A DNA stretch of 63,111 nt, filler included, from Folioceros fuciformis (GCA_049999805.1; 17 parts of 17 records of this genome joined end to end with filler, not necessarily neighbours in it); one strand, 5' to 3'. Counted from the first letter of the whole stretch, positions 357 to 46,291 are shown. Program-made: numbers and translations. Notes: a model not told the origin generated them from the sequence alone.

Positions 357-3300
357 ATGGGTGAGTCTTCATCCAATACGAATTACAGAGGAGGAGATGG
401 TTTTAGGGAAAAGGACAGGTTTGGTGGACAAGACTATGACATCTGGGTTATGAGGATGCGGGGCATTCTTCATAGTAAGAGACTATGGAAGATAACTATT
501 GACGAGGAAAAGGATGATGGAACTGATATGGCATCTCAGGAGGCTTGGGCATCAAGAATGAGCATGCAATGTACATCATTAGAAGTGGTCTTACTTCTGA
601 TATGATGCAACAGACCTCTGGATGTGCAACTGCTGCTGAAGTCTGGACTCGCTTGCAAAACTTGTATTCAGGTAACAACACAACTAGTCAAATGACCGCT
701 TTACGAAATCTACAGAACTGTAAAATGAAAGATGGTGACTCTGTTGAGAAGCACGTTGGGACCTTTAGGAGCCTAGTTTCAAAACTTGAGAGTGCTTCAA
801 ATGAGAGCGTAAAAGATGACATGCTAGCCCTACACCTGATGCTTTCTTTGCCTCCATCATGGTCACACTTTGTGACCTCATTAAATGCTTCAAAGCTCAC
901 AGCTATGAAACTGGCAAAGGCTTCAAATGTTACTCTCCCTAAGATGACATTCACAGAGTTATTGGGAGCTCTTCTTGAGGAAGAGGCTACAAGAGGACCT
1001 GTAAAGAGCAAACAACATGCCCTTTATACCACAAAACGAGGAAAGGGGGGCAAACCTAATTTCCAAGGTCGACAGTATTCTTCAAGTGCTGGGACTCCTC
1101 AGAAGGGTGTCACACAGAAGAAACCCAAGAAGGCTGGAAAGTGCCATTGGTGCCAAATTCCAGGCCATTAGGAGCATGAATGTCGTAAGAAGCAGGCCGG
1201 AATACCTTGCAAGGAGGGCAATTCCACTTCTGAGACACATGTTGTGGTAAAGAAGCAGTCCTCCCCGTCAGTCCTTACTGTAGGGACTAGGGAGTTTGCT
1301 TGCCCTCTTATTTATCCCACCTATCTATCCACAAGAACAGATTTTAGATCATTCCAAGAATGGTACCTAGACACTGATGCAACAGCGCACATATGTTTTG
1401 ACAGTAATGCCTTTGCAACTTATCAGCCAGTAACAGATTAGTTTGTTTACCTGGGTGATAATATATCCCTTGTGTCTCCTGGAAGAGGAACAATAAACCT
1501 TAAAGTTCCTTCAGGAATTACTCTGTTGCTCACAGATGTATATTACGTACCTGAGATGACAAGGAATCTTATACCTGTTAGAAAGCTAAACATGGATAAC
1601 AATACACACATCCTGTTTACACCTACAGAATGTAAGATTATAGATGCCGTTGATCCTCATAAGGTCTTGGCACATGGATCATCTTACAGTGATCTTTTTC
1701 GTCTTCACACCAATGTTGCACATGGTGCTGCACAAACTCACTTAGCTTCACAAGCTATTGATGCTTCTGCAAAGCAAATTGAAAAGGTGAAGTTATGGCA
1801 TGCCCGTTTAGGTCATCCACATAGTTCCAAGTTACAGCAGTTGGCTACAAGCGACTTATATCATGATGGCCAAATTGGTCCCTTGCCTCCCTTACCTCTC
1901 CGTGAAGCATGTGTACTTTCTAAGCGCCATCAGGCTGCCTTCAAGAATAAGACTCCACATCGAGCTTCTGAAGTGCTTGAATTGGTCCATACTGATATCT
2001 GTGGACCCCTCTCACAGCCCTCTATTGGTGGAGGTCGTTATTTCCTTACATTCACAGATGACAAAACACGTTTTGTTAAAGCTTATATCCTAAAGGCTAA
2101 AAGTGAAAGTTTCTCTCTATTCAAAGAATACATAAAGTATGTAGAGAGATGGACTGGACAACAATTAAAAACACTTCGCCCAGACAATGGGGGCGAATAC
2201 ACTTCAAATGAGTTTCAAACATTTTGTGCAAATGAAGGGATTGGTAGACAACTTACCATTGTTTACACGCCGCAGCAGAATGGCATCACAGAACGCCTCA
2301 ACCTCACTCTTCAGGAGATGGTTTCTTCACTGCTGCATCATGCAGCATTACCCCTACCATATTGGGCCGAAGCCCTTATGACATCTGTTTACCCGTTAAA
2401 CAGATTGCCAACCACTGCTATTGAAGGGCAGACACCATATGAAGCATTTCTTTGCAGAAAACCTTCTATTCAACATCTTCGTACCTTTGGGTGTCTTGCT
2501 TATGCCTTCATTCCTAAGGAGAAGAGAAAGAAATTATCCGCAAAGGCCAGAAGACTTCTTATGATTGGCTATACAGAGGGGATAAAAGCTTACAAACTCT
2601 ATGACATCTCTCGTGACAAAGTGATTTACTCACGAAGTGTTACATTTGATGAGGGAAAATTTCTACCTTCAGTGGGAGCTTTTCCCACTCTACAGGCTGA
2701 TGATACATCTTTCCCTTTCCCTGATGTTTGATGATTCTCCTCATGAGGATGTTGCTCCTGCAAGGGGGGAAGATCCACAAGATCAACAAGTGTATCAACA
2801 GGAAGAGTTAATATTGGATGCAGCAGACAATCATACCTTTGATGACCTGCAGTAGCAACCTCCTCCTGACGAGCAACTACCTGTCCTGACCCCACAACCA
2901 GTACTCCATTATCCTGCCAGAGAACGTCGAGCACTTGATTATTATCAAGCGCCTGACTTTAGACCTATCTCTTCCTATGCTTAGGCATACTCTCTCACTT
3001 TCTTGGATCCACTTGAGCCTCAGTCTCTACACGAAGCTTTAAGTCATCCTGATCATAAGGAATGGGAGAAAGCCATTGAATCGGAATACGATTCCCTAAT
3101 TGAGAATGGTACCTGGGAGATAGCTAAACTTCCTCCCGGTAGAAAACTGGTATCCTGTAAGTGGGTATTAAATTGAAAGTAAAGGTTGATGGTACCTTCG
3201 ATAGGTAGAAAGCCAGGCTTGTTGCCAGAGGCTTCTCTCAAATTCCTGGCCTTGATTACTTTGAAACCTTCGCTCTAGTTGTCAAACCTGCTACACTGCG

Positions 3301-4606
3301 AACCATGTGTGCAATTTCAGCTCACAGAGATTACGAATTGCAGATGTTTGATGTCAAAACAGCATTCTTAAATGAGAAGATAGATACAAAGATCTATATG
3401 CAGCAACCCCCTGGCTATGAGATTCAAGGCAAGGAGGAATATGCTTGCAAACTAAAGAAGTGTCTGTATGGACTGAAACAGTCTGCCATGAAATGGAATG
3501 AAGAACTAGACAAGGAACTTCTAGCTTTAGGCTTTACAAAAAGTAAAGCTGATGGTAGCCTATACATATACAAAACCACAGAGATAATATGCTACTTTGC
3601 TATATATGTTGACAATCTTATACTCTCCAGCAATACTCAGTTGTATATTGATAAGATCACTGATCTCCTGGCCACAAAATTCAAAATGTCAAATCTTGGT
3701 CCACTTCAGAGTTGCCTAAGTATCTATACTCAAAGGAATAGACGAACTAGGGTTATTACACTAACTCAACCAAGATACTTATTTGACTATGCTAAACAAT
3801 TTGGCCTCAAAGATGCTAAAGTAGTGGCTACACCCCTCCCTAGTGGCTTAAAGCTCAGCAAGAGCATGTCACCTGTCACACAAAGTGACAAGGATCAGAT
3901 GGTCAACGTTCCCTATAGACAAGCAGTTGGCAAACTCATTTACGCTGCCAACACAACCAGACCTGAGGTCGCCTATGCAACTAGTGTCTTGTCTCAATAT
4001 CTCGAGAACCCTAGACAAAAACACTGGAGTTGTGTTAAACGAGTTCTTCAGTATCTGAAGGGAACAACAAATGGAGGCATACTATACTCTTACCAATCAG
4101 GAGTTCCTCTTGACTTGAAGGTTTACACAGACTCTCACTACGCTGGAGATCTGGACACCAGAAAGTCCGTATCTAGATATTGTGTTTGTGTTGCTGGAGG
4201 ACCCATATGCTGGTCCAGTAAAAAGCAGCCAACAGTGGCGCTGTCTAGCACTGAAGCTGAATATCGGGTACTGAGAGCAGCAGCTAAGGAAATAGTCTGG
4301 TGCAAGCTTCTATTTTTAGAAATGGGGATCGACATTCCAACCTGCACAACTATACACACAGACAACCAAGGCTCGGTCGCTCTTGCTAAGAATCCAGCCT
4401 TCCACTCAAGGACGAAACACGTGGAAGTCGAATACTACTACATTCGTGAGTTAGTATCTGCAGGGACAATCGAACTGCAATATATTTCCACACAAGACAA
4501 TCCAGCTGATGTCTTAACCAAAGCTCTTGGACGAGAGCTACATGAAAAACATGTAAAGGGTCTTGGACTAGGGGAGTCAGAGACTTTCCTAGCTGATCCA
4601 ACCTGA
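357..4606 (+). mobile_element. Ty1/copia gag-pol, decayed (frameshifts and stops)
   Basis: Gag (RFGGQDYDIW, CHWCQIPGH knuckle), protease WYLDTDAT, integrase (WHARLGH, VHTDICGP, LRPDNGGEY, PQQNG), RT (DVKTAFL, LYGLKQS, YVDN), RNase H (SSTEAEY, NPADVLTK), in copia domain order. Confidence 0.96.
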
Positions 4607-4632
4607 ACTATGCTACCTACAAGACTCGCCTA

Positions 4633-4910
4633 CTACTCACTGTCATATTCACTGTCAGACACATGCATTGCTGCTGAGGCTTTCTTTGGGTTGCTAGAAT
4701 CATCATCAGTACTGGATGATAGCTATATGTAGTCCTCACTGAGCACTTTGTCTTCAATGATTTTGTGCACAAAACCTGTAGTGTGAGTTACATGTTGACA
4801 GCAAACGATTTTCAAAACTAGTGGGAGTAGAGAGTGGGAAAGACACATGGAAGGTTGGACTTACGATAATAGCTGATAACATGGCCTGGAAACTCGTCAC
4901 TCTCATAGAC
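4633..4910 (-). pseudogene. 3' part of the copia antisense accessory gene (end of main exon, intron, acidic last exon), truncated by the insertion at 4911
   Basis: Reverse complement is homologous to about 10095-10374. It reads ...EFPGHVISYY, then GTAAGT, then CTACAG and the acidic exon with one Q-to-stop change. Confidence 0.75.
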
Positions 4911-5652: not shown

Positions 5653-5752
5653 NNNNNNNNNNNNNNNNNNNNNNNNNNNNNNNNNNNNNNNNNNNNTTAA
5701 TTAATTAANNNNNNNNNNNNNNNNNNNNNNNNNNNNNNNNNNNNNNNNNNNN
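5653..5752. other. Artificial contig linker (N44-TTAATTAATTAA-N44). The same linker occurs at 8627, 11001, 17230, 18447, 19843, 22875, 26095, 28223, 33966, 35675, 42896, 49971, 56015, 58174 and 60176
   Basis: An identical 100-nt block with six-frame stops occurs 16 times. It is not biological. Confidence 0.98.
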
Positions 5753-8585: not shown

Positions 8586-8728
8586 AACTTCCAACTACCT
8601 ACACCCAGCACCTTTCCCCACAAGTCNNNNNNNNNNNNNNNNNNNNNNNNNNNNNNNNNNNNNNNNNNNNTTAATTAATTAANNNNNNNNNNNNNNNNNN
8701 NNNNNNNNNNNNNNNNNNNNNNNNNNAG

Positions 8729-9033
8729 TGTTGAGTTATCGAGCTCTATATGAGCTAAACTCATGTGGTGTTAGTTATCCCAGTTGGGTTCATACTAGAC
8801 TAGTTCTAGTTATTAGTGAACTTAGGATAGTGTAGATTATCCCATATTGAACCTGGAAGTTGTGTAGCCCTAAATGTACTACTTAAATGGAGACCTCGGA
8901 CCTCCACAGTAAGACAGTGGTGATGTGTATTGTTTTCATGGTTGTGATCACCAATACCACCCTCTCTTCTCTCCTCTCCTCTCCTACACTTGCACGTAGA
9001 TTGGAGTCGATCCTATTGACATGGTATCAGAGC
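8729..9033 (+). mobile_element. 293-bp 5' LTR (TGTTGAG...TTGACA) plus tRNA-iMet PBS
   Basis: LTR 8729-9021 is nearly identical to the solo LTR 52707-52999. TGGTATCAGAGC follows at 9022-9033. Confidence 0.92.
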
Positions 9034-9183
9034 CCGGTGCAGGCGGTGCAAGATCGGCGTAGGAGGTGCTGCAAGAGGCAGCAAGAGTGCACACCAGAAG
9101 CTAGAGCAGCTACGAGAAGTTGGAGCAGCTTGGAGGGAGATCGGCAGCAAGCGTCCCGGCAGCTAACTCTCATATCGAAGACA

Positions 9184-9356
9184 TATTGAAAAGACACTAT
9201 GGCTATAACTTAAACGACATAACTGTTCGCTATAGGTTGTAACCCTAACGAACGGGTACCTAATAATTATTTATTCTAAATACCCCTATAAACCATTATA
9301 TTATGTGCCTTTAATTTGCTAGATATTATCAACACTATCTCTTAACACTCCCACTT
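9184..9356 (-). mobile_element. Copia 3' LTR (~164 bp) with polypurine tract
   Basis: The minus strand reads AAGTGGGAG then TGTTAAG... and ends TTCAATA. Confidence 0.75.
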
Positions 9357-9613
9357 GTTGATGATTTCGAACAATAAATTCACAGTCGTGCTTCACTGGT
9401 ATCAGTCATTACGTGCGAGAACCAGCTGAGACTTCAGCCATGAACTATGAGTGCTTGGTTTCCTCCTACTCTTCGCCTCAAAACTCCATAATACGGTGTT
9501 TATTGGAGCGTGCTCAAAAGAAACCTCTTGAAAGCAGGTGTGCAACATTCATTCTTATCTTGTTCACTCTTAGCATTCTTTTGAGAGAGCAGCTAGAGAG
9601 TAACTTGACCAAG

Positions 9614-10374
9614 ATGTCGTCCTCTGAGGATTCGAAGGCGACTCCGCGCTATGTGAGGGATACCTTGGGCCGCTTTGCGCGTGCCAAGGGAGCTCCTAGG
9701 ACAACTGCCTCAAGTCCTGGCGGGAGGTCCGATGCTGGAACGAGTTCTCCCTTGCAAAAGCAAACCCTCAAGCGTCCAAGGGTCTTCTTCAACACTCCAC
9801 CTACTGTGAAGACAAGAGCCGCTGACAATATGGGAGCTCACGCACGTCCTATATCATCTGCAGGACATAGAGCTGCAAACACGCGACTGACTGAACATAA
9901 GCTTCCTATTTTTATAGACTCAGGTCCAGTCGCGATGTGGGAGGAAGGTGAGGGAAGGCCTCTTGTTCCCCTCAAGTTCCCAAGAGGTAGCCTCAAGCAC
10001 GATACAAGAATCATCGGTTTGGGGACTACTACGAAGCCCAATTCTCCTCTTTGGTATAGGTGCACTCTGTCCACAATTGTGATGGAGAGGATTAGAGTCT
10101 GCGAGAGTGAAGAGTTTCCAGGCCATGTTATCAGCTACTACAGTAAGTTCACACCTCCATGTGTCTTTCCCACTCTCTACTCCCACTGCTTCTGAAAATC
10201 TTTTGCTATTAACATGCAACTCACTCTACAGGTTCTGTGCACAAGATCATGGAAGACAGAGCGCTCAGTAAGGACTACATACAGCTATCATCCAGTACTG
10301 ATGATGACTCTGGCAACCCAAAGAAGACCTCAGCAGCAATATACGTGTCTGACAGTGAGTATGACAGTGAGTAG
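9614..10374 (+). CDS. Antisense accessory gene of a minus-strand copia. Predicted exons 9614-10142 and 10232-10374; the ORF is open upstream to 9413
   Basis: Lies between the pol end (10403-10497, minus) and the PPT/3' LTR. It shares a 64-aa block with 13587-13778. An 89-nt GTAAGT...CTACAG intron joins it in frame to an acidic exon ending ...YVSDSEYDSE*. Confidence 0.75.
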
Positions 10375-10402
10375 TAGGTGGGTCTTGTAAGTAGCAGAGT
10401 TT

Positions 10403-10497
10403 AGGTTGGATCAGCTAGGAAAGTCTCTGACTCTCCTAGTCCAAGACCCTTTACATGTTTTTCATATAGGTCTCGTCCAAGAGCTTTGGTTAAGACA
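10403..10497 (-). mobile_element. RNase H C-terminus of the same copia family as 357-4606
   Basis: Reverse complement is nearly identical to about 4510-4606 (LTKALGR...GLGLGESETFLADPT). Confidence 0.9.
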
Positions 10498-11000
10498 TGT
10501 GGGGTTAAAATATGGTACCCGAGGGTACCGCGAGGTCCACACAAGCCCTCTATGCCGTTGTAGCTCTGGGATTCGATCCCAAGGAAATGATTCGTGTTAA
10601 ACTACATAGGTTAGCTTCTAAAGTCAATTAGCACCCAAACTCGACTGACCCACGCACACACGTCCCGTGCTCGGTCTTTACCCAGTCCCCTTACTTCTCC
10701 CACCAGACGACCCTCCTACCACCCAGTCGCACCAGGGACTACCTCCCCCTGGACTACTCTTGGTGGCCCGCCGGACTACCCTCCGTTCCCCAATGGACTA
10801 CTACTGTCGTCTTTCGGGCTACCACTTGTGGGTCACACTCCCTCTCTCTTTCTCTCTCTAGGATTTCCTCTCTCTTTGAGTCGTCCCTACCTGACTGTTT
10901 TCTCGCGCCTTCCCTTTTGCGCTTTCCTTCCTTGGTTCTCCACAAAATAGCCTCTCACCCTCAGGATCAAACGCACACACATATGAACAACGACAATCTG
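10498..11000 (+). repeat. Repeat family C (TGTGGGGTTAAAATATGG...), probable LTR end
   Basis: Matches the reverse complement of 56115-56359 and is related to 20256 onward. It interrupts copia RNase H. Confidence 0.8.
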
Positions 11001-12354
11001 NNNNNNNNNNNNNNNNNNNNNNNNNNNNNNNNNNNNNNNNNNNNTTAATTAATTAANNNNNNNNNNNNNNNNNNNNNNNNNNNNNNNNNNNNNNNNNNNN
11101 CGGCGGATAATACTTGTTGAGCACCTTGCGCTCTCCCATTTCCCCCGAAGAGTGCCGAAGCCCCGACAGGGGGTTTCTAACTGAGGGAAGCCCGCTTAAT
11201 TCGCATAGTAAATTAGGGCCGCAGCAGGAATTTCCACAGTTAAACAAGACAAAATAAAGTGGCAACCCTCCTTTTTTTTCTTTTCACCCATCCTTACAGA
11301 CGCTCCATTGGCTATGCGTAGCGGAAGCTTTCGTTGGATTTTGGTGTCATTTATCTACTACCACTATGACGAATTTGGACTGTATCGCAGGTTTGCAGAA
11401 GACGTGAAAAACGATAAAAAAAACTCTCAATTTTTCTTTTGTTTTTTTCTTCGAGAAGAACCTCGTCCGGGGCGCTCTGCGCCCTCTTGGAGAATGCGTA
11501 CGGCCACCTCCGGCCTTCGTTTGCTTGCCAACTGCTTTTGCCCGAAACTAGAACGAAGAGATATAGGAAGGAGGCCAAGGCCACCTTGCTTTATTTTTCG
11601 CGCTTTTGTTTGGTGTTTTTCCTTATGATACAATTGAAACTCTCGGACGGTCATGGGATCTGTGGACGTTTGCTTAAAAGGCCCCCCGGTTACACGCAGT
11701 CGGGCTCCACTTGCATCGCAGGTGGAGGCCAGAAAACTTTTCCTAAAATCGATCCAGATTCGCAGATTATGCCATTACTACCTTATGACTTCAAAGCATG
11801 CAAGGCCACAAGTTGACTAATTTTCCTCCTGCCAAGCGTCTTGGGGTGCGAAGCCCGGAGCCGCGTGCCCCCGCAGTGCGGGCTCGACCCTTTTCTTAAC
11901 TCCATAGAGTTTGTGGGAGTCAGTTGTTGTGTAAGTACCCCATGACACCTAGAGGGATGTAGTAACCCTAGGAGAATGTTGCAAGTGCAGAATGTGGGGA
12001 TTGCATGTCTACAAAATCAGTGGCCAGCCTTTGGAATAGCAATGACATTGTAGTGAAGTTCACGTCCTGCAACATGGAATGTGAGCTAAGAATGTAGTGA
12101 ATTTTAGGTCCTACGACATGGAATGTGAGGTAAGAATGCAAGCAACTGCATGGGCTTCTTGCATTCTTAGGAGGAAAGCTAGCATGGAGTGGCATGTGGC
12201 CAACCTTCAAAATAGTAATGACATTGTAGTGAAGTTCGGGTCCTACAATATGGAATGTGAGTTGAGAATGCAAACAACTCATGGGCTTCTTGCATACCTA
12301 GGAGGAAAGATAGTATGGTTGTCCGTGCACTATGGTGTGGATTGTAGTCACTGC

Positions 12355-12550
12355 ACACATCCATGGCCCCGTCTAGCCTAATCACAAAGAATGAAACAGA
12401 GGAGCTTGATTGTGGGTAGACACATCCATGGCCCTGTCTAGCCTAATCACAAAGAATGAAACAGAGGAGCTTAATTGTGGGTAGACACATCCATGGCCCT
12501 GTCTAGCCTAATCACAAAGAATGAAACAGAGGAGCTTGATTGTGGGTAGA
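12355..12550. repeat. Tandem repeat, ~65-bp unit x3
   Basis: ACACATCCATGGCCCYGTCTAGCCTAATCACAAAGAATGAAACAGAGGAGCTTRATTGTGGGTAG occurs three times. Confidence 0.92.
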
Positions 12551-12795
12551 TTGAACAGCCATTTTGGTAGATTCAATATACCTAGAGGAACCCATGGGAT
12601 TGTGATGAGCAGCGAACCAAACACATGTGTTTTGTATGTCAATTCAATTTCTATTAGTGGCACAAGCAACCCAATGTATTCGTTCCTAGACTGTAACCCC
12701 AAGTCTAAGAGTCTAAGATTGAAAAGAATTTCACATCCTTCTTGCAAGCAACCCAGTTTTAATTTTAGGAATTTCTATGTAAAATATATATATTC

Positions 12796-13001
12796 TATTG
12801 AATGATTCATGAAGTACAATACTAATAAAAGAAAAAAAAATATGTCTTAAATAATAACTACCAAATTAGGGCTATAACTACCGTCAATGGGTGCATCCTT
12901 TCACAAGGTGCACCTATATAAAAATTAAAATTATGAAACTTGCCCTAACCCTAGTTGATATAGGCAACATACTAATAAGGGTCATTTCAACACTCCCACT
13001 T
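12796..13001 (-). mobile_element. Copia 3' LTR (~197 bp) with PPT
   Basis: The minus strand reads AAGTGGGAG then TGTTGAAA... and ends TTCAATA. Confidence 0.75.
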
Positions 13002-13241
13002 GTTGCTATATCTACTAGGCTTCTATTTGCCTCATATCGGTGCTTCAACTTCAAGTAATGTCCACACACGAATGATAGGTAGTGCACGAGCACAATAGTT
13101 ATTCTCACACGCTTGTGGAAATATGATGGAGTTGCATGTCGTGCCGCCAGCAGCTTGGTTAGTGCATTCCCAATTGTTGGTTTAAATTTTCGTGCCAGGT
13201 TTCAAGAATGGCTCACAGACCAACAAGCTCCCAACATTGTG

Positions 13242-14477
13242 ATGATGCTATATACTGATGTCAGTGGTAACCAAAAACAAAGGCGCACCTACAACAGGGA
13301 TACTCGCAGCCACTTCATCACTAAGAGGGTCAAGGAAAATCATGCCAAGATCACGAGATTTGCCACAACTAGCAACCCTGTGCAGCGGCTTCCACACTTA
13401 ATTCCAGCCAGAGTATCTTCAGCTGTCAACGCGGCGAGTAAAGTTGTGAGGCGGGCACTCCGGCGGAAGAAAAAGAAGATGGGAGCACCAGCCAGGAAGA
13501 CGCCTACCAGGGCCGCTGCAACACACACCGTCACTGAGAAGACTGCTGTGGAGGTTTGTTACAAATACGCGTCCCAAACTAACACTCCTCCTGTGCCAAA
13601 ATTCTTTTCCATCGGCGAGTTGTGGAAGAAGACCAAAATCTACTCGCTGGGAACAATCTCTAAGCCAGGCACACCAGTCTAGTATAAATGCTGGAAGACA
13701 GGCCTGAAGATGGTGCACGTAAGGGTTAGAGACAACAACCAAGTTCTCAACCACGTGATCAGCTTCTATCGTAAGCATCACACTTCCTCGAAACTCGAAA
13801 ACGTTGTTTTCCTATTTTCATTCACATCTGCACATTTCCTTGCGGTTCTGAATTACATGCACAGGGTTCGGTCTGCGGTTCATTATGGATTTGTTGTCCC
13901 AAAACCTTCACACTTAGCGGGTTACTGTGGAAGCTCACTACATAGTCGCTAACCCCGTTGATTTCAATCTCACAGTTTTCCCGTTTTTGTTTGCTTTTGA
14001 TTCATTTAGTTCTCATCTGACTCGGGTTCAAGTAGCAAGATGCAGCCTCAGACATATTTGTATAACTACACTAACCAGGCAGTCTGTGCCTTCGGGATAT
14101 CACCTTGAGCTGATTACTGCTTTTCCAGTTGCACGAAATATCTGCTGAAAATCCTAACCACTTGATCATTTTTGTTATCTGGTATTGATATCCTGATATG
14201 TTGTGCTGCCATCCAGAAACTTCAATATGCACTAAAAACTCCCACTGTTTGTGCAGGGTCTGAACAAAGAATTGATAAGGAGCAAAATCTGGACCACAAA
14301 GACAGAATTTCGTTTGATCCCACTTTCTCTAATTCCAAATCGAAAAATGAAGATCATGAGGCCAATGACATGGTGGACGACGATGAAGATAGCTGCGAAA
14401 ATTTGACAGGATCTCCTCGAGACCATAGTCACCAGTCAATCTCTGACTCTTCTAATGAGAGTTTGTATCGGAGCTAG
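13242..14477 (+). pseudogene. Antisense accessory gene of a second copia family (one W-to-stop change at 13680; predicted last exon 14257-14477)
   Basis: ORFs 13113-13682 and 13710 onward are in one frame. Homologous to 9614-10142, with a GTAAGC donor at 13771 in the same position. Confidence 0.72.
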
Positions 14478-14494
14478 AATACTCCCCCAGGCCT

Positions 14495-17137
14495 AGTGCC
14501 TGAACTGTTTGTTATGCAATTCTTTGCTTAATGGCTTTGTGAAAACATCAGCAGGATTTTCTTATGTAGGGACATATTCCAGTTTTACCTTTCCAGCTGC
14601 AACTAAATCTCTTATAAAATGATATTCCACTTCAACATGTTTTGTCCGATAGTGAAACACTGGATTTTGTGCCAAAACAATTGCACCTTGATTGTCTGTA
14701 TGTACTGTTGTGCAAGCTGGAATTAATAAGCCAAGTTCCTTAAATAATAACTTGTACTATATCACCTCTTTGGCAGTTGCTGTAAGCACTCTATACTCAA
14801 CTTCGGTGCTGGGCCAACTCATAGGTCCTTCAGCAACACTAACCACATGACCAGAAACGGATTTCCTGGTGTCTACATCTCCTGCATAATCGGAATCTGT
14901 AAAAACTTTCAAAGTAAGTTCTTCATCATGCTTGCCCTGAAATCGTATGCCTCTGTTAAACGTGCCTTTCAAATATCTAAGTACATGTTTCAAATATGTC
15001 CTGTGTTCTTGTCCTAGATTCTCCAAATACTGAGACAAGACACTAGTTGCATAAGCTATCTCGATTCTTGTGGTATTAGCAACATAAATCAACTTACCAA
15101 TAGCCTTTCTATAAGGTATCTTAGACATAGCTTCCTTTTTAGTTTGTGTACTAGAACTCATAATTTTACTTAACCTAAGTCCTACTGGTAAAGGAGTAGA
15201 AACAGGCTTAGCATCCTTTAAACCTAATTGTTCTACATTGTCTAAAATATATCTGGGTTGAGATAAATTTAAAAATCCTTTACTTTTATTTCTTTGTATA
15301 TGCACACCTAGACAGCTTTATAAAGGTCCTAAATGTGTCATTTTAAATTTAGCAGCTAAGAAATTATTAACTTTGCTAATGAAAGCTGTTCTATTGCAAG
15401 TTAAAATCAGGTCATCTACATACAAGGCTAAATAGCAAATAACAGGACTTTTGATGATAATATAAAGACTGCTATCTGCGCGACTCTTTACAAAACCTAA
15501 GGTATGTAACTCTTCATCTAACACCAAATTCCATTCTCTTACTGACTACTTAAGTCCATAAATTGTTTTAATAAGTTTGCAAATTAACTTCTCCTTTCCC
15601 TTTACTTCATAACCAAGAGGCTGCTGCATATATATATATATATCAGTATCGAGTTTGCCATAAAGGAAAGCAGTTTTAACATCCAACATTTGCAACTCAT
15701 AGTTCTTACAAGCTAAAATAGAACATAAAACACGGAATGTAGAAAACTTCACAACAAGAGCAAAGGTCTCGAAATAATCCAAACCAAGTACTTGAGAAAA
15801 GCCTCTGGCAACAAGTCTGGCTTTATATCTATCGAAAGTGTCATCAGCCTTAACTTTCAACTTAAACACCCAGTTACAAGACACTAAATTCCTCCGGGAG
15901 GCATCTCCACTAACTCCCAAGTGCCATTTTCAATCAAGGAATCATATTCTGATTTAATGGCAGCTTACCATTATTTACTATCAAGTCTACTCAAAGCTTC
16001 CTTAAGAGATTGAGGTCCAAGAGGAAGGGAGGTGGCAGCCAGGACTTTTGCATAAGACACACCTGCTCTACCTGCTGTAAAATCAGGAGCTTGATAATAA
16101 TTAGGAGCGTGCCGCTCACGGGTTGGATAACGACGAGGTGGAGGCTCTGGCTCAGAAGCCAATTGTGGAAGTAAAGTAGAATGCTCTTCAAAAACATCAG
16201 CATCATTATTGACAATGTCCTTCCCTGCAAGATTAATATTTTCATCTTGAATTCCCATTAAAAGAACAGGTAATGGAATAACTGGTTCATGCATGGGTTC
16301 AACCACAAAATGTTGCTTGGATTCACCCCTCGAAATGGGAATACCATAATCTGTCTGATCAAAATGAGAAATTGGAGGAAGGGCTGAATCATTAGCACCC
16401 TCCTGTTGAGCTGAATTTTCAGATCAACTAATCTTACCAACCCAAAGGTACTCTCATCAAAAGTAACACTTCTTGCATAAAAAACTATATTTTTAACATC
16501 ATCATATAATTTATAGACCTTGATACTTTTAGTATACCCAGCATGAGAAGTTTCCTTGACTTATCTGAAAACTTCTTACGCTTCTCTGTGAGTATGAAAG
16601 CATAAGCAACACAATCAAAAATCTTTATGTGTTGAATTGATGGCTTCCATCCTATAAAAGCCTTATAAGCTGTCATATTATCAATAGAATTTGTTCGCAA
16701 CCTATTTTTGAGGTAAACAATATTTAAATTCAAGCGCTCTACAACTCCATTCTATTGAGAAGTGTAAACCACTGTCAATTGTCTCCCAATGCCAACATCT
16801 ACACAATAATCTTGGAAAGCATGGAAGGTAAATTCTCCACCATTATCTGATCTCAATGTCTTCAATTGCTTTCCAGTTCACCTTTCATATTGTTTTACAT
16901 AATCCTTAAAATAGGAAAAACAATCACTTTTGTTTTTCAAAATATATGAAGTGATAAATTTGGTTTTATCATCTGTAAAAGGTTAAAAAATATTTTTCAC
17001 CACCTATGGACTCTTGAGAAAGAGGCCCACATAAATCTGTATGTATAAGCTCCAATGTTTTATGTGCTCTATGAGGAGTCAAATTTTTGAAAGCAGCTTG
17101 ATGTTGCTTGGACAAAACACAAGATTCACAAAGTAGA
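14495..17137 (-). mobile_element. Ty1/copia pol (INT-RT-RH), decayed; sister family of 357-4606
   Basis: IHTDLCGP, RRYPTRERHAPNYYQAPDF linker (similar in element 357-4606), YKARLVARGF, YVDD, DSDYAGD. Confidence 0.95.
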
Positions 17138-18724
17138 TGATGAATCAAACTCACTAAGTTTTGAACGTGTATTCGTTCCTAGACTGTAACCCCAAGTCTA
17201 AGATTAAAGAGAATTACACATCCTTCTTGNNNNNNNNNNNNNNNNNNNNNNNNNNNNNNNNNNNNNNNNNNNNTTAATTAATTAANNNNNNNNNNNNNNN
17301 NNNNNNNNNNNNNNNNNNNNNNNNNNNNNGGGTTCGAATCCCGGCAACAAGATTTCAACCACATTTCTTCAGTTTACTAATTTATTACAAGAATCACTTT
17401 GTTTTGTGAAGTATCATCATATTATGTAATAGTATATACTCTATGATACTTTATATGATATATATGATACTACACCCTATACTTTACTATAATACAAAAG
17501 TTTTATTTTTGTTACAAATGATACTACATAACTAGATAACAAGCGTTCATTAGGCTTCAGGGTTGGCCCCTAGTGTTCCTTTCATGGTTTATCTCTCTCT
17601 AGAGGTGGATTTTTTTTTCCATCTTTTTCTACTAAAATAAATAAGTTCCTTTCGCTAACAAGGAAATAGAATAACACAAACCGCTTTCTTCGCTTTGTTT
17701 CATGACATACAATAGTAAAAATTAATAAAATATGAAATATCATCATACTTTACAAAAATACTAAAGTTTCATTTGTGTTATTCATCATGCTATATAAGTA
17801 GATATAACACCATGCAAAGAGGTTAAGGAATACTATCCCTTAACCTCTACTAGTAGACCCTTTTCACAAAAATACGCATAGACTTCCATGTGTTTTTCTA
17901 ATGTAATATGTCTTTGACATAATTCTTGTGTAATTAGGCCGAAGATGGAATGCTTTATTTTTCAAGAGTAATGACCATCATCAAAGAAAGTGGGTGCCCA
18001 CTGGTTGGCAACCACTTTCTATGTGTACTTTGGCCATTATAATCCATCAGGGTAGTCCTACACAAAGCTTGGAGCTTCTAAGCTTAGAATAAGAGAAATA
18101 CATCCCAAAGGCCTACATCTGAACTATCAGACTGTCAACTATAAAATTTACTTTGTTTACAAAGTTTCTATTTGATGAAGCAAGTATATGAAGTGGCACT
18201 AGGGCCATTGTTTTTTTTTATCTACAAAGTATACAAGAGAACTAAGGGTCCCTAGGGCCATCATTTCTTTCATCTAGGTTTAGGGTTTGATCTATGAAGT
18301 ACAGCATTTATAAAGCAAGTATACAAAGTGACCCTAGAGCCATAGTTTCCAACAAAGCGGTTTAAGAGCCACAACTTCTTTTAATTCATATGAGGCATAA
18401 GCAAACATAAAATCATGTAAAACTAATATCATTGAGTCTTCTAAGTNNNNNNNNNNNNNNNNNNNNNNNNNNNNNNNNNNNNNNNNNNNNTTAATTAATT
18501 AANNNNNNNNNNNNNNNNNNNNNNNNNNNNNNNNNNNNNNNNNNNNGGAATTGTGCCCCTTCGAATCTGAATGAAAAGTCGCAGCTGTCTGGATAGTGGC
18601 GCTTCGTGTCTCCTCGCTCCCTGCCAGCGGAAGCAGGATCACAGGATGGTGTTGTAACAGGAATATAAGATGCTGAATAGCAGTCAAGACAGCTTGACAT
18701 CTTGTGCGTGTAGCGAGAGATAGA

Positions 18725-22974: not shown

Positions 22975-25900
22975 TCGTACTAAAGGATGTTAGGCATGTT
23001 CCAAAGTTGACCAAAAGCATGGTTAGCGTAGGGCAGTTGGATGACGTTGGCTAACACTGTTGATTTGGAGATCGTTCTTGGAAGATCTCCAAAGGTTGTG
23101 TAACGGAACAGCCAAGTGTTTCCTTGTGGCATAGTCGGTTAGGACATATGTCTCAAAAAGGAATGAAGATCTTATCTCGTTTTCGTTACGTCCTTGCCTT
23201 TGACTTCTCCGATTTCTCCGTGTGTGAGCACAGTTTGTATGGGAAACAGATGAAGTCACTACATGGAGTAAGAGGTAAACACAAAAGTAAACATCTTGAG
23301 TTGGTTCACAATGATGTTTGTGGACCTATGCCCACTGTATCATTAGGTGGTGCATCCTATTTTGTCACTTTCATTGATGATTTCTCACTCAAGGTGTGGA
23401 TTTATTCTTTAAAGAAAAATGATGATGTTCTGATAGTGTTTCAGAAATTTGTCACCCTTGTCGAAAATCAGTCTGGCCTCCAACTAAAGTGTTTAAGGAC
23501 AGACAATAGGGGAGAGTATGTTTTGAAGGCTTTCCAGTCATTCTGTGATTCCAAGGGAATCAAGAGAGAATTGACTGCGCCGTATACTCCTCCCCAGAAT
23601 GGTGTGGCTAAGCGGATGAACAGGACCATCCAAGAGAGGATGCGTAGTTATTTCTCAAACTCTGGATTGCCTAACGGATTTTGGGCGGAAGCAGTAGTTA
23701 CTGCGGTGCATCTTATTAACAGATCTCCTAATAGGGCTGTGGATGAACAGGTTCCAAAGGAGATGTGGTTTGGAAAGAAGCCGTCATACAAGCATCTACG
23801 AGTGTTTAGCTGCGAGGCATACTATCATGTTCCGAAGGAGTTGCGGGACAAATTGGCTCCTAAGTCAAGAAAATGTATTTTTCTTGGCTATGGTGAATCT
23901 GGTGAGATGGGATACCGTCTATGGGATCCAACGGCCAAGAAAATGGTCCGCAGCAATGACGTGTTCTTCAATGAGACCAAGATGCACAAGAAGCGTACTC
24001 CAACTATGGAGGTGCGACGGGTGGTCTTTCAAGAAGATGGACTTAACCGTCTCGCGCAGGTTGAACATCGTGATGTGCAGGAACAAGTTCCTTCACTTGT
24101 AGAAGAGGAGTGCAACCAGCTCCGGTCGAGGCGCGAGTGCTTCGTAGGTCAGGAAGGATCTCACGCCCTCCTAACAGGTATGTTGCATTTCTTGATTATG
24201 TCATGCTGACGGATTGTGGGGAGCCCTCTTGTTATCAAGAGGCCATGTTAGTGACTAATAAGGACAAGTGGGAGAAGGCGATGTAGTTGCAGATGGATTC
24301 GCTCTATAAGAACCAAACATGGGAGTTGGTTCGGTTGCCTAGGGGCAAGAAGGCGTTGCCATGCAAATGGGTGTATAAGATGAAGAACATACCCCATTAT
24401 GGCAAACCAAAGTACAAGGCATGATTGGTTGCTAAGGGTTTTAAGCAACAGCAAGGTACTTTGATGAGATTTTCTCTCCAGTTGTCAAAATGACAACCTT
24501 GCGATGTGTTCTTGGTGTGGTTGCGAGGCACGATATGGAACTTGTCCAGATGGATGTGAAGTCGGCATTTCTGCATGGTGATCTCCAGGAAGAGGTATAC
24601 ATGCAGCAACCAGAGGGTTTCATTGAGAACGGCTAAGAGAGTCTGGTGTGCAGGTTAAAGAAGAGCCTTTATGGTTTGAAACAGGCACCCAGGGAGTGGT
24701 ATTTCAAGTTCCACGCATTATGCTTTCTCAAGGCTACAAGCATAGCGATGAGGATCATTGCCTCTACACAAAGCAAGCTAAGGATGGAAGCTTGCTCATT
24801 CTGGTCCTCTATGTGGATGATATGCTAATTGCTGGGACTAACAGTGATGAGATTTCATCGTTGAAGTCAAAGTTGAATGCTCCCTTTAACATGATAGACT
24901 TGGGAGAGGCAAGCCATATTCTTGGCATGTGTATTCGTTGAGACAGACAGAAGCGTTTGCTTTACTTGTCTTAAAATGAGTACATTAACAAGGTGCTTCA
25001 ACGTTTCAATATGGAGAAGGGGAAGGTATTGAGTACTCCGTTGCTTCCATATGTGAAACTGTCGAGCAAGGATTGCCCAAGTTTTGCGGAGAACAAAGCT
25101 GAAATGGAGAAGGTTCCATATTCATCATCTGTAGGGAGTTTGATGTATGCAATGATTGCTACAGGTCCTGACATTGCTTTTGCAGTGGGAATGGTTAGCA
25201 GGTTTATGTCAAACCCTGGCAGGAAGCATTGGGAGGCAGTGAAAGGAGTTATGAGGTACTTGAATGGTACGAAAGCTTTGTGCTTATGTTTTGGTAGTGA
25301 AGATGCATCTATAGTGGGATATACGGATGCTGATTATGTAGGGGATATGGAGAAAAGGAGGTCCACATTATGTTATGTCTTCATGTGCACAGGAGGGGCA
25401 ATCTCATGGCGATCTCATTTGCAATCGTGCATAACACTATCTACCACATAGGCCGAGTATGTTGTAGCAACTGAGGCGAGCAAGGAAGCCATGTGATTTG
25501 CTCGTTTAGTGGGAGATTTGGGGATCAAGGTTGAGCTGCCAGTGTTGCATTGTGATAGCCAGAGTGCTATCCAGTTGGCGAAGAATCTAGTGTTTCATGC
25601 GAAGACCAAACATGTGGAAGTGAAGTATCACTTCATTCGAGAGGTGTTGGAAGACAAGAGGGTACAGCTTGTCAAAGCTCACACCAGTCAAAACCCTGCA
25701 GATGTTCTTACTAAGGGGCTCTCTATGGAGCAATTCGCACAAGATCGGACACTCATGGGCATGAGGTAGACCACTCTCCTATGAAGGTAAATTGGCCTCT
25801 AAGTGGGAGGTTGTAGGGTTATTAAAGCCCAATGTGCTTAGACTAATGTCGTTAGTCTAAGATTAGTGTCTAGTTAAGTATCATTAGCTTAGATTAGCTT

Positions 25901-29042: not shown

Positions 29043-29197
29043 AAACCACAACGAGAGGGGTACCACGAGAAAGGAATCAAACATTACTCCCCAACAACTC
29101 TACTGGAGTGGGAGTAATCTGCGTGTTCTCATCGTGAAGTTGATGACAACACGGCACCGGCTTCCACTACAAATGGCGGTCGCTAAGAGAATGTGCA

Positions 29198-29653
29198 GTG
29201 AGGGCAAGCATCTTCATGAACATCAGGATGACAACCAGCAGCGGAGAACACCGAGAAGCCAACGAGGGTTGCCTTAGCAATAAGCGAGGTAGAAGGGAGG
29301 GAGCACCTGCAGAAATACACCTTGTGGCATGGCCAACACCGCCAACTGACATGAAGCGGGCCTTGCGAAGCTACAGGGTGAGGTGGTCTGGCGTTTCTGA
29401 GATAACGTGGTGTCTGGTTACAGGCGAAGAGGACTCCAGGTCTTCAGATTGCATCGATCCCATCTCCAAGAACAACAATACTTATCTGAGCGAAGGAGAA
29501 GAGGAAGAAGTAGACAACTGGTCGGCAGTCCAACTTCAGCACCAGCCTACCATCACCAATGAATCTCAAGCCGCAGCTGTTCAACAACAGGTGATTGGAT
29601 TATTCGCTCAAGCTTCATCCACTTGCTGTCGAAAAAATCTGCTGTTGTCATAA
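29198..29653 (+). CDS. Putative antisense accessory ORF of copia 29954-33593
   Basis: Sits between the pol end and the PPT, opposite to pol. Contains MTTSSG, NKRGRR, RVRW and EGEEEE. Confidence 0.5.
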   Translation: MRASIFMNIRMTTSSGEHREANEGCLSNKRGRREGAPAEIHLVAWPTPPTDMKRALRSYRVRWSGVSEITWCLVTGEEDSRSSDCIDPISKNNNTYLSEGEEEEVDNWSAVQLQHQPTITNESQAAAVQQQVIGLFAQASSTCCRKNLLLS

Positions 29654-29953: not shown

Positions 29954-32900
29954 CTAAGTGTTTTGAAAATAGCTGTAGAAGTTTATCAGCCCTAGGCCCT
30001 CCATATGCTGATAATGTTTAGCTTTTGGTAGGCCTTTAGTCAAGATGTAAGCAGTGTTTTTGTCGGTGGGGACATAGCCTACTGTTGCTATTCCCTTTTC
30101 AACCATATCTCTGATATAGTGGTGCTGGATCTCAATATGTTTAGTTCTAGCATGAAATTTGGGATGGGCAACCAGGTCAAGGGCAGACATATTGTCACAC
30201 AATAGGAAGTAGGCTCATTCTGAATTTGTCCCAAATCTGCAAGGAAGGTTCGTTCCCATTCCAGTTCCTTTGAAGCTTCTGTTAAACTCTTGTATTCTGC
30301 TTCAGTTGATGATAAGGCAACTGAAGCTTGTTTCTTGCTGCTCCAGTTGATCACAGCTGATGAGAGCATGAAACAGTATGCAGAAAGACTTCGTCTGGAA
30401 TCACTATCTGATGCCCAATCAGCATCAGTGAAGCCTGCAAGAGTGAGTTTACTTGTCCCTTTTGACTTGTATGCTAGACCATAGAATTTTGTCCCTTTTA
30501 AGTACCTAAACACCCTCTTGGTCGCTACCCAATGTACACGACCAGGGTTTTCTAAAAACTGAGATAATGTTCTAATTGCGTATTGTATGTCAGGGCGAGT
30601 CCAGTTCGCAATGAACAAGAGGCTCCCAACAGCCTGTCGATAGGGGATTGTGGCCATTTCCTTAATCTCATCGTGTCCTTGAGGGCATTGTAAGCTAGTA
30701 AGTTTAATCCCCAATGATATAGGTGTGGCTGCTGGACGTGCTTGCTCTAGCTTAAAACGTGTCAGCATTTCCTGTATGTATTGGTACTGATGTATGATCA
30801 ATAATCCTTCAGCTCTGACTCTAAGTAGCTGGATGCCGAGACAGAATCTCAACTCGCCTATGTCTTTCATTTCAAATTTACTGCTAAGCATCTCCTTTAC
30901 TTGTGCTAACAGTGATTGATCATTTGTTGCAAGGATCACAACATCCACATATATAGCCAAGATCACGTACCCTGAACCTTTGGAGAGTTTATAAACATTT
31001 CCATCAGCAGCACTTTGAACAAAGGAATGACTCAACAAGTATTCATGAATGGTAAGGTACCAAACTCTACCACTTTGTTTCAGCCCATAGATAGTTTTCA
31101 GCAACTTCAGGACTTTGTTTGTATGCTTGGAGTCCACATAACCCTCTGGTTGAACCATATACAGGTCTTCATCCAGAGAGCCATAAAGGTAAGCTATACA
31201 AACATCCATTTGCTGCAAGTCAAGATTGAATTCGGCAGCCAATGTGAATATCATTCTTATTGACTGTGCTCTTACAACAGGAGAAAATGTCTCTTGGTAA
31301 TCAAGGCCCTCAACCTGGGTAAATCCTCGTGCCACCAACCTTGCCTTGTACCTCGCTATATCTCCTTTAGCATTCAATTTCAGTTTGAAGACCCACTTAC
31401 ATGATATGGGTTTTCTTCCTTTTGGCAGATCCACAAGGATCCAAGTGTTGTTTTTGACAAGGGAATTGTATTCGTCATCAACAGCAACTTTCCACTTGTC
31501 TTTCTCAAGTCCTGAATAGGCTTCTGTAAGTGTCTTGGGTTCAAGGTGAATAGTACTTGATGCTGAGTTACATACCTCAGCAGATGATGTCCTAAAGTCA
31601 ATTGACTCATATCTTGGCTCCCTCCACTGTTCAGGAGGGTTTCTCTGTCGAGTAGACTGTCTTAATGGAGGATCTGGATCAGGGACAGTTTGTATGTTCT
31701 GAGGTATATCTTATACCTCATTTCCAGGAGGTAACTCCTCTCCCTCTAAATCTGGAACAGGTGGGTGATCCTCTAACTGTTCTTGATGTTCTGCTGTAGG
31801 TGGCATTTGTGCAGCCTGAACATCAGGACCTTGTTGATGTTCCTGAATATCCCGTAGAGGTGCTATGGCAGGAACATATGCATCGTCAGTAGCATCATCA
31901 GAAGGATAAACAGCATCAATAGGGTCTGCAGCGGAAGTAGGGAGAGGTAAATCTCCTGATGGTAGAATATTCAGTAACGGATCTGAAAGGTTTGGCTCCG
32001 TAATTTCTAGGAAAGTAACAGATCGCGCTAATATCAATTTTTGATTTACAGGATCATACAGCTTGTATGCTTTAGATTGCTCGCTGTAACCCACAAAAAC
32101 AAGGGCTTGGGCTCGAGGATCCAATTTCCTGCGTTTCTCCCCTGGAACGAGAGCAAAAGCCTTGGAACCAAAAACTCTAAGGTGTAGCAGACTGGGCTTT
32201 CGACGCCACATTGCTTCATATGGGGTCTGGGAGGTAAGGGAACTGGTAAACAGTCTGTTCAAGATGTAGGTCGCAGAGACTATGGCTTCTGCCCAGAAGG
32301 TTTGGGGCAGACCAGCCCATAGGAGCATACTTCTAGTCATGGAAAGGAGTGTTTGGTTCTTTCGTTCAGCAACTCCGTTTTGCTGCGGAGTATAAGGGAC
32401 AGTGAGTTGACGCTGGATGCCTTGTTCCTGCAGGAAAGAATCAAAAGCATGGTTCACAAATTCAGAACCGTTATCAGTGCGGAGACATTTGAGTTGTTTT
32501 CCCGTCTGGCGCTCAACCATCTGTAGCCAATCCTGAAAAAAGGTAAATGTATCACTTTTCAGATGAAGTGGGTAAGTCCATGTGTATCTGGAAAAATCAT
32601 CTGTGAGGCAGAGATAATAAATTGCTCCCCCTAACGAGGCAACTTGGATCTTTCCAGAAATATCAGCATGGACCAATTCTAGAATTGAGGTAGCACGATA
32701 AGACGCTGCTTGAGGGAATGGTAGTTCCTTCTGTTTGGCCACGATACAAGCTTCACAAGGAGGTAGCTCCTTGAATACTTGAGGTAACCTTTCTTCGTGG
32801 CAATCCTGTAGGGACATGTCAAGTAACTTTCGTTTGTTGACGTGCCCTAATCTTGCATGCCATAGGACAGCAAGTTTTGTTGACTGTCTTGTGATAGCAG

Positions 32901-33593
32901 CTGCCTTATGCTGAACAGCATAAATATCCAACTTATACAATCCATGTTCCACGACACCTTTGAACACTGGAAAGCTAGGTTTTCTTATGCGGTAGAACGT
33001 ACAAATTCTATCTGCAGCTTGCATCTCATACTCATTTGTTTGCATGAGCTTGCTTAGGGAGAAGAGGTTCTTAGCCATGGACGAAACGTACAGTAGGTCC
33101 TCCACTATAAGAATAGACCCATCATGCAAGATGAATTTGCATGAACCACTTCCCTGTACAGGTAGACTAGTTCTGTTTGTTTCATCACCTAACAAAACTC
33201 TTTCATTATTATACGCAGCAGTAAACTCATAGAACTGATTTTTATCTCTGCAGATGTGGGAAGTTGCCCCAGAATCTAGATACCAATTATCCTCTGGGGG
33301 AAAGGTACGAGCCAAGCAAACTGTAAGGATCTTCACCGCTGGTTTAGTGTCACCTTGATTCTTCTGCTTGGCTGATACTGCTGCAATCGTCTTTTGTACA
33401 CGCTGTGGCTCACCTGCCTTTTTCCTTCTGCAGTCTCTTGCCCAATGCCCTCCAACCCCACACCAGTGGCAGTTGCCAGGGCGTTTTACTGACTGAGGAG
33501 GCCTATTACTAGGATTCACAGGCATTTTTCCTTTGCCCTTGAATGTCCTTTGGTTAATCGCCAGTATCCTCTCAGACTTACTCTTAGGAGTGC
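29954..33593 (-). mobile_element. Ty1/copia gag (C-terminal part)-pol, lightly decayed
   Basis: CHWCGVGGHWARDC, WYLDSGAT, WHARLGH, LRTDNGSEF, RT YKARLVARGF, DADWASD, SSTEAEY. Confidence 0.96.
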
Positions 33594-33965
33594 TGTGAAC
33601 CTCCAAAGTTTGGGGTAGTAGTTTGTTTTGGTTGAAAAAGGGTTAATAGTGGTATGGTTTGGTTTTCTTTTTCAACTTATTTTTCCTAATTTTCCTTTAT
33701 TTTCTGGTCATTTTTCCTATTTTTCTTTGTGCTAATTGGGTTAATTGACCAGGAAATAGTGGGTTTGGTTATAAGAGTGGGTATAGGTTTGGTCCCAGAG
33801 CTGGGAAGGTTTAGGTTCGGTACCAGGCCATAGGGTTGGGTGATTAGTTTAATATTAATTAAAGATATATAATATTAAATGATTAAATAATAATATTATA
33901 ATATTATAATATTATAATAATATAATAATGGTTTGAACATAGGAACGGGTATCTGGGTATGTCAG
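33594..33965 (+). repeat. Repeat family D inserted in copia gag
   Basis: Begins TGTGAACCTCCAAAGTTTGGGG. Inverted copies at 1-70 and 50071-50277. Confidence 0.8.
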
Positions 33966-37912: not shown

Positions 37913-38825
37913 TGAAGGATCGCTAGAGGAACCATAGGGTGAAGGAGGAGAGGAGGAAGTTAGGAGGAGAGGAGAAAGAGAGGTCACACTCTTGCATAGA
38001 GTCTCACATTGCAAGGGAGCTCAAGGGGTATTTATACCCTCCAGAAGAGCTCCCAAGGAAGATTCACAAGAAGCGCACAGGAAGCTGCGCAAGAAGCTTC
38101 CTACAGATTAGCTTAAGCTAATCTAAACTAATGATATTTAATTAGACACTAATCTTTGGCTTAACACATTATTCTAAGCACATTGGGCTTTAATAACCCT
38201 ACAACCTCCCACTTAAAGGCCAATTTACCTTTATAGAAGAGTGGTCTACCTCATGCCCATGAGTGTTCGAGCTTGTGCGAATTGCTCCGTAGAGAGCCCC
38301 TTGCTAAGAATATCTGTAGGGTTCTAACTGGTGTGAACTTTGACAAGCTGTACCCTCTTGTCTTCCAACACCTTTCGAATGAAGTGATACTTCACTTCCA
38401 CATGTTTGGTCTTCGTATGAAACACTGGATTCTTTGCCAATTGGATAGCTTTTTGGCTATCACAACGCAACATTGGCAGCTCAACCTTCATCCCCAAATC
38501 TCCCACTAAACGAGCAAGCCACATGGCTTCCTTGCACGCCTCAATCGCTGCAACATACTCCGCCTCTATGGTAGATACCGTTATGCACGATTACAAACGA
38601 GATCGCCATGAGACTGCCCCTCCAGTGCACATGAAGACACAACCTGATGTGGACCTCATTTTGTCCATATCCCTTGCATAATCAGCATCCGTATATCCCA
38701 CTATAGATGCATCTTGACTACCAAAACATAAGCACAAAGCTTTTGTACCATTTAAGTACCTCATAACTCCTTTCACTGCCTCCCAATGCTTCCTGCCAGG
38801 GTTTGACATAAACCTGCTAACCACT
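37913..38825 (-). mobile_element. Tork-like copia RT/RH end, PPT and 3' LTR (37913-38203); same family as 22975-26094
   Basis: Reverse complement is homologous to about 25190-26090. Confidence 0.92.
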
Positions 38826-45900: not shown

Positions 45901-46291
45901 TGGCCTATCCAGCTGCCTGCTCTCAGGATCCTCAGCCCCCCGACGCACTTGGGCTAGGCCATGGCAAGTCTAAGCACGGCACCCACACGCCTATGCCCAA
46001 CCCCTTTCGCACGCTCTTGAGGCCACAACTTGCCCTTGAGGCTCCACACATGCCGACATCCCTCTCCACGGGCACACCCTACCCCCTACTTCACATTTTC
46101 CACGGCCATGGGTTAGCTAGACGATTGTTGACTTTCTAAACTGCACCACCACTATCTCCTGATCATCCTATTTAATCTAGCCTTATCTAACACAGTTTCC
46201 TAATTACCTCTCCAAGGAATTCTATCAAAACTCCAAAAAAAACAAGTACCACCCATTTTCTAAGAGGCCTATCTACCATGGGGTCTCCACA
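42996..46291 (-). repeat. Repeat family A, more than 3 kb of GC-rich low-complexity sequence ending ...CTCCACA
   Basis: The right end is the reverse complement of 4911 onward. The interior is rich in GCCAGC/CTAGC motifs with no recognisable protein. Confidence 0.65.

Follow-up and report, generated by a model that had tools for sequence, protein, structure and literature searches.

Two diverged Ty1/copia retrotransposons in a stretch of DNA from Folioceros fuciformis (GCA_049999805.1) carry a further open reading frame (ORF) between pol and the 3' long terminal repeat (LTR), on the strand opposite to gag-pol. We consider that this ORF is probably a genuine protein-coding antisense gene, functional at least ancestrally, that belongs to classic, non-SIRE copias, predates the divergence of the two families and would specify a nuclear product acting in trans. 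The whole stretch analysed, to which we refer as the window, has 63,111 nt and consists of 17 unplaced contigs with 16 identical 100-nt joints between them. The two copies of the ORF lie on contig 3 (8727-11000) and contig 4 (11101-17229), and the elements that carry them are therefore unlinked. An earlier note on this DNA had placed a plus-strand ORF between pol and the polypurine tract (PPT) and 3' LTR of two minus-strand copias, and we located both ORFs there.

The contig-3 copy runs intact from ATG to stop at 9614..10195 (+) and encodes 193 aa, within a stop-to-stop frame (9365-10195, +) that is open for 276 codons. The contig-4 copy (13245..13820, +) is homologous over its length and has one in-frame TAG at 13680-13682, the sole stop of the homologous frame (13083-13952, +), which is open beyond it to 13952. 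As the earlier note had it, this TAG aligns with a Trp codon of the contig-3 copy (10052-10054). Both ORFs are colinear over their full length from the Met and the YxRDT motif, and the predicted product has the same layout in each. A YxRDTxxxF motif, present 12-15 residues past a Met as YVRDTLGRF in contig 3 (9650..9676, +) and, again as had been noted, as YNRDTRSHF in contig 4, is followed by a basic low-complexity linker of ~90 aa with an MGAxAR motif and clusters resembling nuclear localisation signals, and then by a C-terminal domain of ~64 aa. The 64-codon conserved block that makes up this domain, a candidate chromo-shadow-like domain, lies at 9959..10150 (+) in contig 3 and at 13587..13778 (+) in contig 4; the two align without gaps at 25 of 64 residues, the same count as that made before by hand, and at 96 of 192 bases. 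By blastp the two ORFs match over 106 aa, starting from the MGAxAR motif, with 35 identical residues, two in-frame gaps and an expectation value (E) of 5e-13. The two copies agree in where they lie and how they are oriented with respect to the end of pol and to a 13-mer at the PPT/LTR junction, and both ORFs fit the positional class aORF-3R / eORF-3'R (pol to 3' LTR, opposite to gag-pol). The description of the ORF as an antisense accessory ORF of copia thus agrees with its position and its orientation.

When contig 3 was compared with contig 4 by tblastx, we obtained just two hits, one in the plus frame (63 aa, 39.7% identity, 57.4 bits, E 1.5e-11) and the other in a minus frame (32.7 bits, E 4e-4). 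BLOSUM scores over the 64 codons were 118 in the plus ORF frame and 6, 26, 14, 54 and -25 in the other five. After shuffling the alignment columns with the base identity kept, the best-of-six score had a mean of 28.1 (standard deviation 12.9, maximum 88), and none of 5000 shuffles reached 115 in any of the six frames. Of the 64 codons, the first position is identical in 34, the second in 40 and the third in 22; position 3 differs from positions 1 and 2 taken together (Fisher p = 0.0035). Regarding length, only 9 of the 5875 stop-to-stop ORFs in the window have at least 276 codons, the other eight being copia gag-pol, and the stop frequency gives a run of 276 open codons a probability of about 1.3e-6 per start. 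According to the frame-specific score, the codon-position pattern and the ORF length, the plus frame was under protein-level constraint during the divergence of the two families.

These values can be set against two other explanations. One is that a fortuitous long ORF in a decayed fragment coincides with a fortuitous local match. There are two copies only, and neither has a database relative, as this explanation would have it; it is hardly credible in the face of the E value of the contig pair, of a score that no shuffle reached and of so long an open frame, with the ORFs at homologous positions in both elements. The other holds that conservation resides on the sense strand, in a sense ORF (env-like and degenerate, or of another kind) or in a cis-acting RNA or DNA element of the linker, the plus ORF being its shadow. 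In its favour, one minus frame has its wobble position in common with the plus frame and equals it in identities (25/65, score 54-56), both copies keep a second minus frame open across the block (101 and 130 codons), and SIRE copias do have sense ORFs in the interval from pol to the LTR. However, the wobble-sharing frame holds 2 and 4 stops within the block and scores under half as much, the open one reaches just 12-14, and there is no sense ORF of more than 130 codons in the pol-to-PPT linker of either element. Besides, three-base periodicity at 50% base identity would not result from a structural element of RNA or DNA, and the PPT is of a different type from that of SIRE. We therefore regard conservation of the sense strand as very unlikely; the earlier note had named a sense-strand RNA element as an explanation that might prove better, and the minus frames score far below the plus frame.

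The carriers are Ty1/copia elements, with the order gag, integrase and reverse transcriptase (RT)-RNase H and an RT of the RVT_2 type. This order is seen on contig 1 (1-5652), which also carries a truncated third copy of the ORF and where the gag, integrase and RT-RNase H ORFs occupy 527..4606 (+). The Pfam domains are Retrotran_gag_2 at 527-1168, gag_pre-integrs, rve and SH3_retrovirus at 1442-2728 and RVT_2 at 3209-4603, and pol ends at 4606. The RT-RNase H of this element (3209-4603, +) has at most 45% identity to any of the best 120 listed proteins of 6629 at E <= 1e-30, hence the databases represent this copia lineage poorly, and probably its host group too. On contig 3, the only pol left is a remnant at 10401..10499 (-), which comprises the last ~33 codons and a stop at 10401-10403. 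Contig 3 is 88% identical to contig 1 over 10096-10400 / 4911-4607, in a local alignment that reaches 10498, and judging from this alignment its element is a 3' fragment of the contig-1 copia family. The pol of the contig-4 copia (14493..17178, -) is decayed and split over at least eight stop-to-stop ORFs, and the 5' part of the element is lost at the contig end. Since this pol is only about 55-77% identical to that of contig 1 (tblastx segments), the ORF has survived a long divergence. Of the two minus-strand copias described before, the one on contig 3 thus retains no more than about 100 nt of pol (10401-10499).

The contig-3 fragment is flanked on both sides by other repeats, at 8727-9177 and about 10500-10626, as seen in DNA-run contigs of the same organism. 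These repeats are far more abundant, with a summed word depth of thousands to 130,000 versus about 40-150 for the internal part of the copia. The repeat at 8727-9177 is also found in runs labelled as two other organisms, while the internal part of the copia is found only in the organism that we call A. As for the joints between contigs (5653-5752, 8627-8726, 11001-11100 and 13 further sites), each has the structure N44-TTAATTAATTAA-N44 and stops all six frames; the 44-N runs number 32 and form 16 pairs, and features on either side of a joint are not physically linked. Rfam and tRNA scans of the whole window gave no match.

We then considered the anatomy of the linker between pol and the PPT, whose length is close to 1.04 kb on contig 3 and to 1.49 kb on contig 4. 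The terminal PPT AGTGGGAG and the 3' LTR start (TGTT...) lie at 9344..9356 (-) in the contig-3 copia and at 12989..13001 (-) in the contig-4 copia, and the 13-mer at this junction, AAGTGGGAG followed directly by TGTT, is identical in both. The 3' LTR of contig 3 is broken off near 9177-9182 by the high-copy repeat. Each linker also has an upstream copy of the PPT octamer, at 10180..10187 (-) in contig 3, where it overlaps the last codons of the antisense ORF, and at 14239..14246 (-) in contig 4; in contig 1 a second copy is found at 4820-4827, between pol and the extra ORF. With its terminal and upstream octamers, the antisense gene is bracketed by PPT copies, as though the PPT/LTR junction of an ancestor had undergone an insertion or duplication. 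In the window, the octamer AGTGGGAG has 17 occurrences where 2.7 would be expected, and none of 100 shuffles yielded 17. The SIRE octamer AGGGGGAG occurs 3 times against 2.45 expected, and never at the contig-3 or contig-4 junctions. The junction of AGTGGGAG with TG and the lack of enrichment of AGGGGGAG show that these elements are not SIRE but classic copias in which the linker is unusually long. In Bousios et al. 2010 (PMC2829016), the G-to-T octamer AGTGGGAG is described as a common variant of classic copias, and SIRE is said to have about four copies of its PPT, AGGGGGAG with AT/TG after it, whereas here AGTGGGAG leads directly to TG and is found in two copies.

Further AGTGGGAG sites were seen at 2671-2678, 24267-24274, 25508-25515, 25802-25809, 38206-38213, 38500-38507 and 48884-48891, among others. 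Some of them are inside or just after the pol/integrase ORFs of other copias of the window and may be internal (central) PPT copies. In the contig-4 LTR, TATATAAAA lies at 12915-12923 (+), some 80 nt in from the edge of the LTR and some 320 nt upstream of the ATG of the antisense ORF, and is a candidate antisense promoter element; no strict equivalent of TATATAAAA was found in contig 3. A direct duplication of ~65 nt (ctacccacaat.aagctcctctgtttcattctttgtgattaggctagacagggccatggatgtg) was also observed at about 12400-12530 (-), within the presumed 3' LTR of contig 4.

The bracketing octamers are what one would expect if some old sequence, picked up or nested (for instance part of a host gene or a small foreign unit), had been inserted backwards beside the PPT of an ancestral copia and passively inherited since without further use to the element, a cassette placed as if at the PPT/LTR junction. 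The in-frame stop of the contig-4 copy suits this account as well, and so does an ORF tail that is no better conserved at short range than the adjoining spacer (see below); besides, the authors of REXdb take the heterogeneity of extra ORFs as a sign of independent acquisitions (PMC6317226). Yet passive inheritance down to a pol identity of 55-77% should have erased the frame and the similarity of the proteins, and we found instead a plus-frame score of 118 versus a shuffle mean of 28, with third positions the least conserved. No donor-like protein was found among 1.84 billion representatives either. We thus hold passive capture to be unlikely, although a good deal less so than chance or sense-strand conservation, and continue to favour a genuine antisense gene.

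Several observations weigh against a selected antisense gene with a nuclear product, and we gather them here, beginning with its copies. Our comparison was limited to the window, where just two copies are informative, one of them with the in-frame stop, and a third retains 30 codons. The latter (4821..4910, -), carried by the plus-strand copia of the contig-3 family, covers the antisense ORF's final 30 codons, is ~80% identical over them and ends at 4911, beyond which the DNA is unrelated. The earlier note had given this copy as 4633-4910; the truncated copy does exist, but only 4821-4910 belongs to the ORF, the remainder being part of the spacer from pol to the ORF end (4607-4820). A tblastn search found no further copies of the ORF in the window (best other E 0.68). 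Between contigs 3 and 1 we counted 10 differences in 96 positions of the ORF tail, 24 in 205 of the spacer and 4 in 98 of pol, so there is no visible extra short-range constraint on the tail; 6 of its 10 differences are at third codon positions. Selection was therefore borne out between the families, where the conservation is frame-specific and weakest at third positions, and not at short range.

Contigs from four read runs were also compared. DNA-run contigs of organism A, the only ones to span the ORF, cover it with further copies at about 86% identity with some small gaps, and among these other genomic copies some have 1-nt or 5-nt gaps in the ORF. Organisms B and C match only the flanking high-copy repeat, and a run guessed to be RNA matches 8820-8852 only. 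Among the 40 listed of 292 variant positions, 15 fall in the ORF and split 5/3/7 by codon position; they are too few, and mostly private to the contig-3 copy, and so have no bearing on selection. Of the eight listed runs, six contain part of the stretch and in two at least half of its words occur; no RNA run containing it was among them. Concerning the in-frame stop, the copy that bears it sits in the contig-4 element with its broken pol, and the two lesions together fit the joint decay of a dead copy.

The remaining adverse observations come from the protein itself. Pfam hmmscan of both copies at E up to 10 gave no family, and PF04195, PF01393 and PF00385 were absent from its results. PDB sequence and profile searches gave only insignificant matches to unrelated proteins (E 0.49-1.9), and the 64-aa block alone had no match in PDB. 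Neither the ORF nor the two-row alignment had a relative in word-indexed protein searches at E up to 0.01 or up to 10, phmmer against 1.84 billion representative proteins gave 0 matches, and in two metagenome scans none of the 45 and 117 stretches that matched the pattern was confirmed. AlphaFold2 models built from 2- and 3-row alignments had a predicted local distance difference test (pLDDT) of 37.3 (whole ORF) and 40.9 (C-terminal part), and are unusable. With the C-terminal model, Foldseek returned 143 matches at E <= 10 but 0 at E <= 0.001, a result that carries no meaning, and a homodimer model of the C-terminal 86 residues scored 0.00, its fold being uncertain. The pattern of the block, RG..IIG, then ~32 residues, then PxxVIxFY, has a presumed likeness to HP1 chromo shadow domains. 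Finally, the language-model tool used to look for likenesses draws its line at 0.9, and below it a share of shuffled sequences also score.

In that language-model comparison, residues 108-193 had Chromo_shadow clusters at ranks 1 and 2, with scores of 0.89 (161 shared features) and 0.88 (138), and chromo/chromo shadow clusters again at ranks 6 and 18, while the whole protein reached 0.79 at best. As all the chromo shadow scores are below 0.9, they constitute a lead and not a test. The products are very basic, with a predicted isoelectric point of 10.1 and 11.0, and have KRPR and RRALRRKKKK clusters in the low-complexity N-terminal half. A nuclear role in binding nucleic acid or chromatin, as put forward in the earlier note, may thus be kept as a lead, which basicity and the language-model ranks favour and to which the Pfam and PDB searches lend no support. 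The same note had considered that a match to an already described copia accessory domain would take away only the novelty of the protein, and Pfam gave no match. One other candidate, Rad60-SLD on the tail of the contig-4 copy (E 0.12-0.15, 12 bits), was far below the cut-off and was rejected.

If the ORF is expressed, transcription would start from a promoter of its own in or near the 3' LTR and proceed against the direction of gag-pol. The product, of ~190 aa and very basic, would enter the nucleus and could act there in trans on chromatin or nucleic acid, as has been proposed for the antisense ORFs of the Ty3/gypsy Tat/Retand elements. Beyond this, the mechanism that we tentatively prefer, from the resemblances of the C-terminal domain, is that this domain is a chromo-shadow-like module that dimerises and binds peptides. 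Such a module might dock the protein on host heterochromatin factors, and could in this way steer integration or blunt silencing. It is conceivable, if doubtful, that the whole protein would then be a copia-encoded HP1-like adaptor, made of a basic hinge and a chromo-shadow-type domain, that dimerises and docks on heterochromatin proteins. This adaptor would be a trans-acting counterpart of the chromodomain fused to the integrase of gypsy chromoviruses, and might target integration or interfere with silencing.

Antisense ORFs between pol and the 3' LTR are listed in a review for Grande, RIRE2, Retand, PvRetro13 and the fungal Boty (PMC7264820). In the bean survey of Gao et al. 2014, PvRetro13 and all 15 families with a reverse ORF2 are Ty3/gypsy, and only two copia families are given with an extra ORF, in both cases sense and env-like (PMC4093653). 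The Tat-Retand type (maize Grande gene23, rice RIRE2, Silene Retand and bean ORF2) has its ORF in the same place of the linker and in the same reverse orientation as ours. These ORFs, which are described as kept across families, without clear database relatives and with a proposed nuclear or regulatory role (PMC7264820, PMC4093653), resemble our ORF in those respects too. There are three differences. The examples given are Ty3/gypsy or the fungal Boty, whereas the carriers here are Ty1/copia; Retand antisense ORFs have Transposase_28 (PF04195), reported in 97% of clusters (PMC11963269), whereas our ORF has no Pfam match at all; and the antisense ORFs of the bean table have 211-939 aa (PMC4093653), compared with 193 aa here.

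SIRE elements, or Sireviruses, are likewise Ty1/copia and have a long linker, an extra ORF after pol and more than one PPT copy (PMC2829016, PMC6317226), but their extra ORF is sense (env-like, eORF-3'F) and the one studied here is antisense. REXdb reports extra ORFs of at least 250 codons in 582 copia elements, belonging to 45 groups and to four classes of position and orientation, and its main text discusses only the sense ORF of SIRE (PMC6317226). Counted from the ATG, the ORFs described here are under this survey cut-off of 250 codons and are therefore easily missed in annotation. In the literature we found no paper on a conserved antisense ORF of copia, although the orientation breakdown of REXdb, in its supplements, may already tabulate such ORFs. 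That copia antisense ORFs are undescribed, as the earlier note had implied, fits the texts of these papers and has to be read beside the 582 elements that REXdb counts.

Two other systems deserve comparison. The chromodomains of plant chromovirus group II are reported to resemble chromo shadow domains and may be platforms for protein interaction (PMC5006619). If the chromo shadow lead holds, our ORF would share with HP1 chromo shadow domains and with these chromodomains a chromo-fold module, here of a retrotransposon, that links an element to heterochromatin; it would differ in being a separate antisense gene of a copia, while the chromovirus domain is fused to the integrase in the sense polyprotein of Ty3/gypsy elements. 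The antisense gene of human T-lymphotropic virus (HTLV) encodes a minus-strand regulatory protein from a promoter in the 3' LTR (PMC7264820), an analogy only, with no sequence relation.

We also made two observations elsewhere in the window. Another minus-strand copia (pol ORFs 29954-33642) has a plus ORF of 168 codons at 29147-29653, in the interval from pol to the LTR, which shows no similarity to the antisense ORF studied here. A GC-rich stretch at 44001-46000 (65% GC against about 45% elsewhere) has plus ORFs at 44307-44936 and 45528-46139, and no Rfam family was found within it.

Conserved antisense genes have been held to be a hallmark of some Ty3/gypsy lineages. If classic copias carry one as well, this strategy would have arisen or spread across both superfamilies of retrotransposons. 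At 193 aa, the protein is compact enough for experiment. If its likeness to chromo shadow domains is real, it would represent an accessory gene of copia tied directly to heterochromatin biology.

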